A stretch of 4,844 nucleotides of DNA from a virus (IMGVR_UViG_2602041863_000001:1-4844), one strand, 5' to 3'; shown: positions 1 to 4,844, numbered from the stretch's first letter. Notes: generated by a model from the sequence alone, not told the origin. A program made the numbers and translations.

Positions 1-2454
1 AGTTCCATTCCCCACCACCGTGCCACTTGATGCACCATCCAGCCAGTCGAAATTCATACCGCCACTGTTTGGTCTCCTTAATGGAACGGTATGAGTATGT
101 GCGCCAGCACTATTTGCAGTACCAGATACATTGTGGGTATGTGCACCTGTGTTATTCGTTGATTTAGTACCGTAATCAAACGAAGATGTGGTTTTCGTAC
201 CCAAATCCGTATTGGATGCGCTGGCGCTGTGGGTGTGCGATTTAATGCCATCCTGTTCCAGAGACAATACGTCCCGACCACTGGCGGGTTTGCCCTTGAT
301 TGTCCAGCCACGCATATCCGGGATCACGCCTGACGGATAAGCGGCTGCAAGTTTCGGGTATGCAGATTTGTCAAAAGTCTGTCCCTGCATCAGGGCGTAA
401 CCAGACGGCACAGTATCTGATGGCCACGGCAGCGGAACACCTGGCGGAAACGCTTCAATATTTGCCGAGCCGTCAAATTTTACGCCGTTAATTGTCCTTG
501 CCGTTTTCAGCTTTGTTGCTGTAGCAGCATTGCCGGATAGTTCGCCTGAAAGACCACCGCTGAATGTCTGTTTCGCCGCCCATGTCTGAGCTTCGTCGAT
601 AATTGGCACACGTCTTGTCGTAATCGTGCGGCTTCCCGGATTTCCTGAAATGCGAACCATAAAAAAGCGGTAATTCGCTTTACTTACAGTGCTGCGCCAT
701 ACATGCATTGAGCGCCCCGTACCAGAATCATCACTCGGACCAACTGCGATGTTTATCAGGTTGCCATCAATGACGCCCCAGTCCATACCGTCGGGAATAT
801 TGGTCATGTTATCAAGCCGAACGGTTATCAGACTGCCCGGCACAAAATCGTAGGTCTGCCAGTCCAGGCTGGTGAGTTTTGCCACTGCGCCACCGATACC
901 CAGATTCAGGGGAAGTGAATAAGATGTGTAAACTTCCCGCCATTCGCTCCACGAGCTGCCGGTATAAACGCGCTCAAACGTGCGACCTTTAAGGGTTGCA
1001 CCTGTTCCGGCGGTTGTATAACGTTGCCATACGTTAACGCCATCAAAGCGCCTCAGCACTTCCAGAATACCGAGTACAGTCACGCCGTTTCCGTCCAGTA
1101 TTGGACCATTGGTCGCTTTACCTGTAACGCTGTAAATACCTGGTGAGGTTACATCATTCAAATCACCGTCGTAATAACGGCTTTCTGACTGGTAGCCCAC
1201 TCTTGACCACGGCTCCCATTGTGGGTTCTCTGCATCCCACGAGGCCGAAAGACAGCGAACATAAACATTTCCACGGCGGGTCGTGTAACGCTGCGTTCGC
1301 GAGTAACCACCACCTTCAAGAACTTCAAGGAGTCCCTGACCATAACTTCCTTCTTCCGGATAGTTGCGGTCAAATGAAGCGATTGAGCCACTACTGTTTC
1401 GCCATAAACCAAGATGCTCTGCGCCTCCGAGCGTGTTCAGGTCAATGGTTGTGCTCAGGGGGCGTGTTGCAGACTGAACCTGACGCCAGTAACTCCACGG
1501 ACCGTCTGAACCATTCCATGTGCCAGAAAGGTTGCGCATATAAACATTGCCTGTTCTGGTGGTGTAACGCTGCATTCCTGCAAAATTACCGCCATTGAAT
1601 ACCTCCAGTACACCGACTGCACCGTCTTCAGGGAAATTTTTAGCAGCCGTCGCGTTAGTGGATGTAGCTTTAGACCAGACGCCAAGATAAGCCTTAACGG
1701 GACCAAATGTATTCAAGTCAGCATCAAGCGGCATTTCGCCATTGTTTTTCATAAACGTCAGGCTGGTAACGCCAACATTGTCCAGAAAAGCGCCCTTATC
1801 TGGAATATCGTCACCGTTCTGGTCTTTCTGCATACGTTTTTCAGCATTGTCATAGGCTGCTTTTACTGCCTTTGGCGTTGCCGCCAGCTCTTCACTGGTG
1901 CTGTTTGTTGCGCTACTTAACTGAGTAAAACCTTTTTCTGTCAGCGTGGCGTCAGGATGGCGGCGGGATTGCTCATGCTCTGCGATTTTGTCATCGACGT
2001 AATCCTGCGTCGCCATCACTGTGCTGGCATCAATACTCAGCTCAACGGACGCTACGTTGCTGACAGTAATAACCATGCGGCAGGTCTGCGCGCGCCCGGA
2101 GCCTTCAGCGAGTTCAGGCTTATAGCTTTCCGCCATGTTAGCGACCGCAATCAGTGTTCCGGCATCGTCATACAGACCCAGCTCACGCATCCAGAAGCCG
2201 CCCACTTCTGGCGGTACAACCAGTTCAGCCACGATATAGTTTTTATTCTTGTTATCCACGCTGACTTTATTCAGAGCGTGACGCCAGACCTCATGCACCA
2301 GTTTCGTCTGACCGGCATCCGGCACCGGCAATTTGCCATTACCGTCACCCACGGCCATTGCAGACAGAGTTACTTTTTTCCCGCCGGGGACAGTGGCGGC
2401 TGCCAGCTTCGCGGCTCCGGCAGTAGTGATAGCGGTTTTAAATTTCGTGCTCAT
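1..2454 (-). CDS. phage side tail fiber protein (lambda Stf / P2 gpH type); 5' end complete, 3' end runs off the window start (818 codons in window)
   Basis: ATG at 2454-2452 on the minus strand, preceded by GTGAGAAACA and the TAA of the upstream frame. I hand-translated every codon down to position 1 and found no stop. This ORF is absent from the supplied track, apparently because it has no stop inside the window. N-terminus [63 protein letters not shown]...[18 protein letters not shown] is the conserved virion-proximal domain shared by lambda Stf, P2 gpH and Mu S. Conserved linker motif [27 protein letters not shown] at about 457-537. Tail-collar-like segment [33 protein letters not shown] at about 304-402. 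His-x-His motifs (HTH at 229-237; AHTHNV and AHTHTV within about 91-144). Confidence 0.9.
931..1608 (-). repeat. three tandem protein-level repeat units (about 90 aa spacing) inside the tail fiber shaft
   Basis: Hand translation shows three related units: [44 protein letters not shown] (about 1477-1608), [44 protein letters not shown] (about 1198-1329) and [45 protein letters not shown] (about 931-1065). Short nucleotide identities only (e.g. cagcgttacac, aatgtttat), so this is an old duplication rather than a recent one. Confidence 0.55.
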
Positions 2455-2464
2455 TGTTTCTCAC

Positions 2465-2827
2465 TTATCCGGGATAAACAGTAATAACATCACCATCACA
2501 GACCACACCGCCTGTATACAGATAGCCGGGAATGTCCTGGATAATGTTCAGGCCGATAAGGTGGCGACTTGCGGGTTTGGCATCGGCAATCAGCCGTTCC
2601 ATTTCCAGATACATTTCCTCGGTCACACCACTGTCCAGCGTGCCAACATCAACCTTGAATGTTCCGGGTTCGCCGTCGAACTCCCACCACTCAGACACGC
2701 GAATGAGGTATCCCAGCGGCTCAATGGCCCGGCGCAGTGCGCTGATGGTCCCTTTGTGTCGGTGTAACCGCGCTTCGCCTTCTGCGTCGCGGTGGTTTTT
2801 CGTGTTGCAGGCTTCCGCGTTGTCTTT
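2465..2827 (-). pseudogene. open frame without ATG or RBS immediately upstream of the tail fiber; possible 3' remnant of a baseplate gene (P2 gpI position). The track's 77-aa ORF 2465-2698 is its GTG-initiated tail
   Basis: The frame is open for 120 codons from the TAA at 2828-2830 to the TAA at 2465-2467, which lies 10 nt before the fiber ATG. Translation: KDNAEACNTKNHRDAEGEARLHRHKGTISALRRAIEPLGYLIRVSEWWEFDGEPGTFKVDVGTLDSGVTEEMYLEMERLIADAKPASRHLIGLNIIQDIPGYLYTGGVVCDGDVITVYPG. The only start in the track is GTG at 2698 with no Shine-Dalgarno upstream. The assignment rests on position (in P2 the baseplate gene I directly precedes H); I cannot verify homology from memory. Confidence 0.35.
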
Positions 2828-3564
2828 TTACTTTTGCTGCTTTCGTCCTGCGCCTGCGGTGTGCTGGCGTCTTCTGGTTCGGCTGCGGAATCGGCTTTTT
2901 TCAGGGCGCGGGAAAGGGTTGCAATCTCGCGTTTCACACCTGCGTTCGGGTTCAGGTGCATCGCTTCGCGCAGCAGCTTCAGTGATGAGGCCATGCTGTC
3001 CGCATCGCTCAGGCCACGGCGGGCAAAGGCGCACGCCTTGCATAATTTGGCGCGCACTTCGTCCGGCATATCCTGGTTGGCGACAATTTCCCAAAGTGTG
3101 TCCAGTGGTTCGATAAAGGCGGACAAATCCGCGTCGGCATCCGTCCCGGCCTGCGTCAGTACCGGGTTGCAGATTTCTTCGGTCAGTACCGTGGCAGCAG
3201 TACGGCCAAAGTTATCCGGCATGATGAGGTTGTGACGGACCACATACGCACCAATACGCAATGCCAGCGGAAGATCGCCGCAGTCAATCGCCCACACCAT
3301 CAGCGTGGCAATCACCTCATCTTGCTGCCCGCCGTCAGCCTCCAGCGTTCCTTCAATCCAGCCGGAAAAGTCCGGTAACAACTCTTTTTTGATGGCGGCT
3401 TTGGCGCTTCTGGCCTGTACGCCCTTAAGTCGGGCCTGTGCCAGACGCAGACGATACAGCACCTCTTCATGCGCGGTACGTGCGGCGTGATCCACGCCTT
3501 CATTCGCCCGGCCTGCGCGCTGCGCCATCACGTTCTGCCAGTGTTGCTGTGCAGGGGTAATCAT
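2623..3564 (-). CDS. phage terminase endonuclease / small subunit, P2 gpM family (313 codons; the last roughly 50-65 codons look like a read-through extension)
   Basis: ATG at 3564-3562 with GGAGAG 5 nt upstream. The protein MITPAQQHWQNV...KKELLP...LMVW..D.GD...AL.I..Y...............TEE...DMPDEVRAKL...AGVKREI..L...LK followed by a basic K/R/T-rich tail matches my recollection of P2 gpM (MTSPAQRH...KRELLP...DMPDEVRAKLHK...AGVKKEIERLEREL...) at roughly 35-40% identity. The ORF is longer than P2 gpM (about 247 aa as I recall), and the C-terminal GPSAHCAGPLSRWDTSFACLSGGSSTANPEHSRLMLARWTVV has an odd composition. Confidence 0.8.
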   Translation of the reverse strand: MITPAQQHWQNVMAQRAGRANEGVDHAARTAHEEVLYRLRLAQARLKGVQARSAKAAIKKELLPDFSGWIEGTLEADGGQQDEVIATLMVWAIDCGDLPLALRIGAYVVRHNLIMPDNFGRTAATVLTEEICNPVLTQAGTDADADLSAFIEPLDTLWEIVANQDMPDEVRAKLCKACAFARRGLSDADSMASSLKLLREAMHLNPNAGVKREIATLSRALKKADSAAEPEDASTPQAQDESSKSKKTTRKPATRKTTATQKAKRGYTDTKGPSAHCAGPLSRWDTSFACLSGGSSTANPEHSRLMLARWTVV

Positions 3565-3569
3565 TCTTT

Positions 3570-3575
3570 CTCTCC
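3570..3575 (-). promoter_or_regulatory. Shine-Dalgarno sequence (GGAGAG) for the gpM-like gene
   Basis: Minus-strand sequence reads GGAGAG-AAAGA-ATG, giving 5-nt spacing to the start codon at 3564. Confidence 0.5.
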
Positions 3576-3581
3576 GTTACA

Positions 3582-3600
3582 GGCGGGCATGATGCCCGCC
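3582..3600. repeat. perfect 19-bp palindrome GGCGGGCAT-G-ATGCCCGCC (GC-rich hairpin) in the capsid-fragment/terminase intergenic gap
   Basis: Read directly: 3582-3590 ggcgggcat, 3591 g, 3592-3600 atgcccgcc (exact reverse complement). It lies 10 nt after the TAA of the capsid-like frame (3610-3612) and 18 nt before the gpM-like ATG. No U-tract follows on either strand, so it is not a canonical intrinsic terminator. Confidence 0.6.
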
Positions 3601-3609
3601 GTGAGTTGA

Positions 3610-4068
3610 TTAGCTGTCGGCGAACTTCAGGCCTGTGACCATCGCGCACTTGCCATAGTCTTCAACGACATAAGCGTCATTGATGGACTGGTAGGTGGCG
3701 ATGCGGTTGTATTCCGGCTCGTCTTTCATCAGGCGACGCATTGAGCCTCTCTGCCAGTAAATTGACAGGTTGTTGAATGAGGTGATCAGCATCGTTGCAT
3801 CCGGGAAGAACGGCGCAAGGAATACATCCAGCCCACCAATGGTGCGCGATGACAGGATGAGCTGTCCGGCGAGTAATTCCGCATTGGGATTCTGGCCGCT
3901 GATGCTGTTCAGCACGGGCAGACGCAGCGAGTTAAACAGGTTGCGCCCCATAATCACCACGAGGTCGTCTGCTTCCTTGTGCCATTCATCCAGCAGGGAT
4001 GAGCGCGCGTCCTGTATCCGGTTTGCGTACAATTTCAAATCCCTGCGGTGCAATGATGCTGCCGTCAA
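3610..4068 (-). pseudogene. C-terminal fragment (about 150 codons) of a P2-family major capsid protein (gpN-like); N-terminal roughly 200 codons absent
   Basis: Translation ...DEWHKEADDLVVIMGRNLFNSLRLPVLNSISGQNPNAELLAGQLILSSRTIGGLDVFLAPFFPDATMLITSFNNLSIYWQRGSMRRLMKDEPEYNRIATYQSINDAYVVEDYGKCAMVTGLKFADS aligns with the C-terminal third of P2 gpN as I recall it (...PWYQEDPDLVVIVGRQLL...YFPADAMLITKLENLSIYY...RR...NIDYVVEDYAAGCLVEKIKVGDFS). The frame is closed by a TAA at 4087-4089 just upstream; the only start in the track is TTG at 4068; the preceding gene overlaps it out of frame. Confidence 0.6.
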
Positions 4069-4844
4069 CGTACAGGCTGCCGCCCCTTAACAGGTGCTGC
4101 ATCTGCTGTTCACCGATATGCAGGCCGAGAGATTCGGCAGATTCCCGCCATTCTTTAGCGAGTAATTCGTGGTTATCAGGCAAAGGCCGCTGCTGTTTGC
4201 GGCTCTGTGTCCAGCTCTGCATTTCATCACTGCTGTTTTTTGCCTGTTTGTCACGCAGCGAACGCATCAGCGCCCGGCGTTCGTGCCGTTTCAGTGAGCG
4301 CATCCAGTCATCCACATCAACGCCGTCAGGAAGCTGCGGCCACAGTGCTGGCCGTTCTTCCGGCTGTTCTGTCCCGTTGTTGTCCGTTTCCTGTACACGG
4401 GGACAGTTATTGCCACGGGTCCAAGGGGCGGCAGGGCCGCCCTGAAGGTCAAAACCATTTTCGTGGGCGTTGTCTTCCGGTTCTGGTTTACGTCTTACCA
4501 GCTTCCAGTTATCCGGATGCGTGCACACACGGGAGGATTCCCCGATGAGTGGTGACCAGATCCCGTAAATCTGTACGCTCTGTTCGCCGTAATCGTTCAG
4601 CTCATCTGCGAGGTCGTAGGCGGTGCGAATCAGGTAGTCCTTGCGTGGAACAAGCACGCCACCCTGTTTTTCAATGTAGGTGGCAAAACACCCGGCATCG
4701 GCGGCAGCGAGTACCGCATCCATTGCATCATCTTTCAGCCGTTGCGGGCCTTCCGGATTGCGTGCCATCTGGCTGGCAAGGCGGCGCAGTTCACGCCACA
4801 CCTGACGGGAGGGGATGCCAAAGAACTGGAACTGACGGACCCGG
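3986..4844 (-). CDS. hypothetical protein, 5'-partial (open to the window end); charged, Pro/Glu/Arg/Gln-rich, function unknown
   Basis: The frame is open from the window edge to the TAA at 3986-3988 (286 codons: RVRQFQFFGIPSRQVWRELRRLASQMARNPEGPQRLKDDAMDAVLAAADAGCFATYIEKQGGVLVPRKDYLIRTAYDLADELNDYGEQ...DDWMRSLKRHERRALMRSLRDKQAKNSSDEMQSWTQSRKQQRPLPDNHELLAKEWRESAESLGLHIGEQQMQHLL...). The track start at 4801 is a GTG; the real start is upstream of the window. The overlapping plus-strand ORFs are Cys/Ser/Arg-rich antisense artefacts, which supports minus-strand coding. The last about 30 codons overlap the capsid-like frame and are probably out-of-frame read-through. Confidence 0.45.
   Translation of the reverse strand, partial: RVRQFQFFGIPSRQVWRELRRLASQMARNPEGPQRLKDDAMDAVLAAADAGCFATYIEKQGGVLVPRKDYLIRTAYDLADELNDYGEQSVQIYGIWSPLIGESSRVCTHPDNWKLVRRKPEPEDNAHENGFDLQGGPAAPWTRGNNCPRVQETDNNGTEQPEERPALWPQLPDGVDVDDWMRSLKRHERRALMRSLRDKQAKNSSDEMQSWTQSRKQQRPLPDNHELLAKEWRESAESLGLHIGEQQMQHLLRGGSLYVDGSIIAPQGFEIVRKPDTGRALIPAG

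Follow-up and report, generated by a model that had tools for sequence, protein, structure and literature searches.

Which tail fiber is encoded by the long reading frame that leaves the 4,844-nucleotide viral stretch analyzed here (the window) at position 1, where in it does host specificity lie, and can the phage that carries it still use it? On the minus strand, translation from an ATG at 2454 gives an uninterrupted frame of 818 codons up to position 1. This frame is aa 1-818 of the 885-aa protein WP_001397297.1, found in genomes that are 100% identical over window positions 1-4016, and 5′ 92% of the fiber gene is present in the window; those other genomes supplied the final 67 codons, the chaperone, and the remaining part of the locus. 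A stop or frameshift just beyond the window, which would make the fiber a truncated one, is absent there, and the frame reaches 885 aa. RefSeq annotates the protein as "phage tail-collar fiber domain-containing protein"; 391 public contigs encode it without change, and it falls in a cluster with 310 members. In PHROG, every family at the top of the ranking is a tail fiber or tail protein family (best E, 5e-261). The domain searches recommended by the initial annotation (DUF3751 and tail collar) returned PF12571 (DUF3751) as well as the collar family PF07484 (aa 672-719), next to PF03406 (aa 170-210) and PF03335 (aa 735-748). NCBIfam has no family for the fiber, and Rfam no RNA family in the window, the GC content of which is 0.49 to 0.59. 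Plus-strand open reading frames inside the fiber gene (e.g., 1143-1598 and 1957-2484) were treated as antisense artifacts. In sum, no observation speaks against this identity, and we put a probability of about 0.93 on the reading that the region makes up the 5′ 92% of the gene H-equivalent fiber of a P2-like (Peduovirus) Escherichia coli prophage, a modular homotrimer with a gpH N terminus, knobs, and a tip of the lambda Stf/T4 gp37 type. The earlier view of a mosaic tail fiber that is incomplete in the window was borne out by domain, structure-database, and fold searches. The features are compiled in Table 1.

Table 1. Features of the window (positions counted from its first letter; aa, residues of the fiber)
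Feature	Position	Strand	Basis or remark
Tail fiber gene, equivalent of P2 gene H, codons 1-818 of 885	1..2454	-	Leaves the window at position 1
gpH-type N-terminal baseplate-attachment domain (PF12571), aa 1-151	2002..2454	-	Pfam E 2.9e-57
PF03406 repeat and Mu S-like connector, aa 168-233	1756..1953	-	Pfam E 8e-22
Knob domain 1, aa 236-332	1459..1749	-	Repeat comparisons, AlphaFold2 and Foldseek, NCBI homolog names
Knob domain 2, aa 333-424	1183..1458	-	43% identical to knob 1, hhalign probability 99.9%
Knob domain 3, more divergent, aa 425-512	919..1182	-	32% identical to knob 1
Fourth beta-sandwich, knob-like domain, aa 513-620	595..918	-	Detected by fold only
Conserved junction GNAATATKL…FDGSANI, aa 641-666	457..534	-	Putative site of C-terminal cassette exchange
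Collar domain of gp37/Stf-type tip, aa 669-735	250..450	-	PF07484, E 1.7e-11
Outward needle strand, aa 736-788	91..249	-	Residue-by-residue alignment with 2XGF
Most of the hypervariable head (tip), aa 789-818	1..90	-	11-25% identity versus 70-90% in flanks
3′ remnant of baseplate gene I, without N terminus	2465..2767	-	PF09684, RefSeq pseudogene
Terminase small subunit gene M, 3′-truncated, fused to I remnant	2767..3564	-	PF05944, E 1.6e-36
P2-family major capsid gene N, 3′ fragment (~135 last codons)	3610..4016	-	PF05125, positions 201-324 of 327 only
Replication endonuclease gene A, internal part, fused to N fragment	4014..4844	-	99.9% identical to L001 19081-19911

The N terminus places the fiber in the gpH type, both by its PF12571 domain and by the position of the gene. 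Residues 1-204 are 85% identical to aa 1-204 of P2 gpH (NP_046775), and the likeness to P2 gpH stops there; both the knob block and the gp37-type tip are missing from the canonical P2 protein (669 aa). The gene lies between baseplate gene I and the tail fiber assembly gene (G/tfa), as in a P2-like late cluster: a remnant of I is directly upstream of H in the window, and the order I-H-tfa is intact in the loci of two sister strains (L002 and L006). The arrangement I-H-G is common to P2, the Peduoviruses P24A7b, P24C9, and "P2SIDE7", and Yersinia phage vB_YpM_22. Behind the N-terminal domain, the Mu S structures 5YVQ and 8JU3 (aa 110-176) match aa 168-233 of the fiber, and lambda orf-401, the N-terminal half of Stf, matches in the PF03406 repeat only (aa 168-207). 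The initial annotation had assigned the first 150 or so residues to a "Stf/gpH/Mu-S attachment domain"; the gpH type stands, but lambda Stf and Mu S share only the PF03406 segment of 40 to 65 residues that follows. We propose that the gpH-type domain would plug a homotrimeric fiber into a P2-type baseplate and that the short conserved repeat and connector would join this domain to the knob shaft.

The shaft had been described as three related units of about 90 residues. Pairwise BLASTP (43% identity and E of 6e-24 for units 1 and 2, 32% and 6e-5 for units 1 and 3, and E of 0.02 for units 2 and 3) as well as hhalign profiles (E of 7e-32 for knobs 1 and 2 and 4e-6 for knob 3 against each of the other two) demonstrate that the triplication is real, but the units are globular knobs of the type known from R pyocins and from Staphylococcus phage receptor-binding proteins (RBPs) rather than plain shaft repeats, and a fourth knob-like domain that has no sequence relation to knobs 1 to 3 comes after them. 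A recent DNA duplication as the origin of the repeats was rejected, since no DNA-level direct or tandem repeats are left among the three units; the triplication is therefore old. In an AlphaFold2 model of aa 225-640 (pLDDT, 78), the top Foldseek matches in the PDB were the RBPs of phi812, 80alpha, phi11 (gp45), and P68 and the R1 pyocin fiber 6CL5 (E of 2e-7 to 3e-5, probability 1.00), with 2e-6 for 6CL5 and 2e-7 to 8e-7 for phage RBPs with knob/tower domains; global TM-scores are low (0.19 to 0.32) because the relative domain orientation in a monomer model is arbitrary. Consistently, homologs of the block are named "pyocin knob domain-containing protein" at NCBI, and Buth et al. treat phi11/80alpha-type RBPs, P68, phi812, and the R1 pyocin fiber as knob-bearing (PMC6116203). 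No match to a pyocin-knob model was obtained in the Pfam or NCBIfam copies searched. Going by the predicted fold, the block belongs to the fibers with tandem antiparallel beta-sheet knobs of the R-pyocin type. The fibers of pyocins R1 and R2 (6CL5 and 6CL6) and the Staphylococcus RBPs (phi11 gp45, 80alpha, and phi812) have tandem knobs of the same fold, and pyocin fibers also possess a His-x-His iron site (PMC6116203), but sequence identity to these proteins is only 10 to 17%, and pyocin fibers end in a lectin-like foot, whereas the knobs here are internal and followed by a gp37-type tip. By analogy, three homologous knobs and the fourth knob-like domain would form a beaded shaft that is stiff and possibly glycan binding.

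The knob block is not confined to P2-like phages. The large distal tail fiber subunit of the T-even-like Shigella phage JK23 (P0065) is 62% identical over the block, and the identity in T-even-like distal fibers ranges from 52 to 62%, with quite different C termini; three further distal long-tail-fiber proteins of this kind (P0106-P0108) have only the distal part of the block, that is, the end of the third knob and domain 4. The presence in T-even-like fibers indicates that the block travels between P2-like phages, which are temperate, and T4-like phages, which are virulent. T4 gp37 itself was considered as a carrier, but the block is absent from it, and T4 shares only the distal 250 aa.

Between the knob block and the tip lies the conserved linker NAATATKL...FDGSANI that had been noticed in the sequence alone. 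About 30 phage records in the list, from Peduoviruses and from P2-like phages of Escherichia and Yersinia, are 82 to 94% identical to aa 22-673, knob block and junction motif included, and then diverge; unlike the fiber described here, most Peduovirus relatives continue with a P2-type C terminus after the motif, and in the alignment the "P2SIDE7" fiber switches to it directly after FDG. The motif is present in 89 of the 120 knob-block homologs, with no fewer than five different sequences coming after it; in certain proteins, the JK23 distal fiber among them, it is found upstream of the knob block. As judged from these alignments, the motif behaves as a cassette boundary, and recombination at this conserved junction would swap distal cassettes.

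The distal cassette itself belongs to the gp37/Stf family of tips (Bartual 2010; Magaziner and Salmond 2022), with a collar, an out-and-back His-x-His needle, and the conserved C-terminal NTVKNIAFNYIVRLA. Residues 653-885 align with the T4 gp37 tip crystal construct 2XGF (E, 2.4e-82) with seven out of seven His-x-His motifs in register, three of which start in the window (aa 740, 772, and 786) and four beyond it (aa 825, 839, 848, and 857). This alignment and the PF07484 match confirm the collar-like segment and the T4 gp37-type His-x-His motifs reported before. Over 250 aa, the protein and T4 gp37 are 59% identical, and with lambda orf-314, the C terminus of Stf, the figure is 65%; identity amounts to 79% (T4) and 85% (lambda) in the collar segment and to 70 to 83% in the outward needle strand. 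By analogy with T4 gp37, with which the ligand residues of the His-x-His motifs are conserved, each needle chain would run out and back, and its seven motifs would coordinate an axial metal, three chains together providing octahedral coordination of Fe(II).

The picture changes at the very tip. In a five-way alignment, collar and needle are 70 to 90% identical to those of T4, lambda, P24A7b, and Citrobacter phage phiNP, whereas aa 789-824 are only 11 to 25% identical. This variable stretch coincides with the head of T4 gp37, residues 938 to 955, which control OmpC/LPS recognition (PMC5221442). The head (aa ~789-824) is therefore the likely receptor-specificity determinant; placed at the hairpin, it would contact the receptor, which in characterized relatives is LPS and/or a porin. 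In a gp37-type fold, the chain extends to the head and then returns, so that the outermost part, the likely determinant of specificity, is encoded at window positions ~1-90. The receptor-binding end, which had been expected beyond position 1, is thus mostly inside the window; only 67 residues remain, which finish the head and then form the returning needle strand and the C terminus, mostly toward the collar.

Directly after the fiber gene, the genomes identical over window positions 1-4016 encode a tail fiber assembly protein (Tfa) of 205 aa (PF02413) that is 80% identical to lambda Tfa and 28% identical to T4 gp38 (E, 5e-19). A tfa-type chaperone had been predicted at this place, and a chaperone of the gp38/Tfa type with 184 to 207 aa directly downstream is characteristic of the tip family; this family of T4/lambda receptor-binding proteins with their chaperones has already been described, with more than 200 members (PMC9659904). 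By analogy, folding of the cassette would depend on this immediately downstream chaperone. After tfa comes a hexapeptide acetyltransferase of 181 aa on the opposite strand (convergent), followed by tail genes. The acetyltransferase gene ("serine acetyltransferase"; L001 7671-8216 [+], L005 5796-6359, L012 4501-5046, and L011 1281-1835) sits in the slot of P2 fun(Z). Its 3′ end overlaps that of tfa by 37 bp, in the prophage described here as well as in Escherichia phage vB_EcoM-613R2, and the combination of fiber, tfa, and convergent acetyltransferase is also present in Hafnia phage yong2 (53%) and Citrobacter phage phiNP (40%). The enzyme may be a receptor- or LPS-modifying moron that travels with the receptor-binding cassette.

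Compared with the nearest known systems, each part of the fiber has a relative, but the combination differs. T4 gp37 and gp38 share the collar, the needle with seven His-x-His motifs, the C-terminal element, and a homologous chaperone, with 70 to 79% identity in collar and needle, but the head is only 11% identical, and the receptor is therefore probably different; furthermore, aa 1-780 of T4 gp37 are unrelated to the fiber, which here is carried by a P2-like phage that is temperate. Lambda Stf (orf-401/orf-314) and Tfa have the PF03406 repeat in common and the 65% identity extends over the distal 256 aa, but Stf has an unrelated N terminus, extra needle repeats (at least eight His-x-His motifs), and another head. 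The side tail fiber of vB_EcoM-613R2 (ON470591) comes with the same knob block, Tfa, and tip variant (98.9% over the tip region) and with the same convergent acetyltransferase (98.9%), but differs in its N-terminal attachment domain and has one PF03406 repeat more. It is the only sequenced phage of the collection with this exact tip variant.

The remainder of the window describes the state of the phage. All other genes lie on the strand of the fiber gene, and the prophage FDAARGOS_1077 (L002), an apparently complete copy, served as the reference for mapping the junctions between them. One deletion of ~5.2 kb joins I to M with a 9-bp overlap at window positions 2758-2766; missing as a result are J, W, V, and the genes for tail completion, lysis, and head completion. 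The other, with a 3-bp overlap at 4014-4016, connects N to A and has eliminated the genes for the scaffold, the terminase large subunit, and the portal along with accessory genes. The frame of gene A, which corresponds to a segment within the annotated replication endonuclease gene of L001, runs on into the N remnant, where it ends at a stop after 9 codons; a 313-aa open reading frame (2623-3564) is gene M reading into the out-of-frame I remnant. Window positions 1-4016 are 100% identical to E. coli O6:H16 strain 2014EL-1346-6 and strain B2C, and positions 1-2766 to many other E. coli chromosomes, but no record covers the whole window, and the exact combination of junctions is absent from the complete-genome collection. 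Sister E. coli strains (L001, L002, and L006) carry differing deletion variants, from apparently complete to heavily eroded, in all of which H and tfa are identical. The two deletions relative to L002 thus reveal a decaying P2-like prophage with a fiber gene that is still intact.

In the same three loci, the tail genes FI, FII, E, E′, T, and U (~650-7500) are opposite in strand to H-tfa and D-ogr, whereas they are codirectional with H-G and D-ogr in P2. A nucleotide comparison of these neighboring tail genes with P2 was nearly empty, and the genes were mapped by protein comparison; by tblastn, the gpD homolog spans aa 15-384 (L002 1703-651), of which RefSeq annotates 266 aa only. Either the block was inverted or its gene order is specific to the lineage; no inverted repeat was found to flank it.

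Three other ways to look at the fiber deserve consideration alongside the main reading. The fiber could be part of an invertase-switched host-range system like Mu S/S′-U/U′ with Gin, P1 with Cin, or e14 with Pin, in which an alternative tip and chaperone are inverted downstream, and the initial annotation had raised an invertase-controlled alternative tip beyond position 1. Fibers with PF03406 repeats include the invertible fibers of Mu and P1, and the Mu S-like connector at aa 168-233 fits such a system. However, in three genomes with identical fiber DNA, the 9 kb beyond position 1 consist of one tfa, the convergent acetyltransferase, and tail genes, no invertase, recombinase, or second tfa or tip is annotated there, and long inverted repeats were not found in the same 9 kb; a switch is refuted for these identical loci and highly improbable for the fiber of the window. 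Another idea is that the knob block (aa 236-620) provides a second, lateral carbohydrate site, so that O-antigen or LPS sugars are bound by the knobs and a core or porin receptor by the tip. In R pyocin fibers, putative binding sites are located on Knob2 and on the C-terminal lectin domain, ~100 Å apart (PMC6116203), and both the fold match and the movement of the block as a unit between P2-like and T-even-like fibers are in line with the idea. On the other hand, one and the same block is paired with several distal cassettes and is 80 to 98% conserved among E. coli fibers, and no ligand site was identified in it; a conserved block with varied cassettes points to a structural spacer more than to a determinant of specificity, and we consider a lateral site unlikely. 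A wider idea, in which tip, Tfa, and acetyltransferase would travel as a three-gene unit, with the enzyme modifying and so masking in lysogens the LPS or surface sugar used by the tip, and with the four-knob block as a second lateral glycan site, is decidedly speculative; the receptor-binding protein of phiNP is reported to use LPS glucose (PMC9659904).

The third alternative is that the fiber still works: it might be domesticated or complementable and retarget particles of a co-resident P2-like phage or tailocin. Several independent deletion variants have kept H and tfa intact and identical, 391 contigs encode the protein, docking on related baseplates is plausible with an N terminus 85% identical to that of P2, and chimeric P2/pyocin fibers are known to work (PMC6116203). 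However, the late promoter region, genes V, W, and J, and most of I are deleted in the window, and descent by itself would lead one to expect retention in a handful of closely related strains. We therefore regard continued function as improbable. With the baseplate, lysis, head-completion, scaffold, portal, and terminase genes lost, its own prophage is unable to build the fiber into particles, and in our reading of a decaying P2-like prophage, the fiber is therefore a relic here or, at best, a store of sequence with which incoming P2-like phages could recombine.

In sum, the modules are from described families, the mosaic principle is textbook knowledge, and the identical protein is catalogued in RefSeq. 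Its value is mostly in correct annotation, as a clean and well-delimited case of tail fiber mosaicism. Furthermore, pinning the head to ~36 residues could aid host-range engineering in P2-like phages or R-type tailocins.
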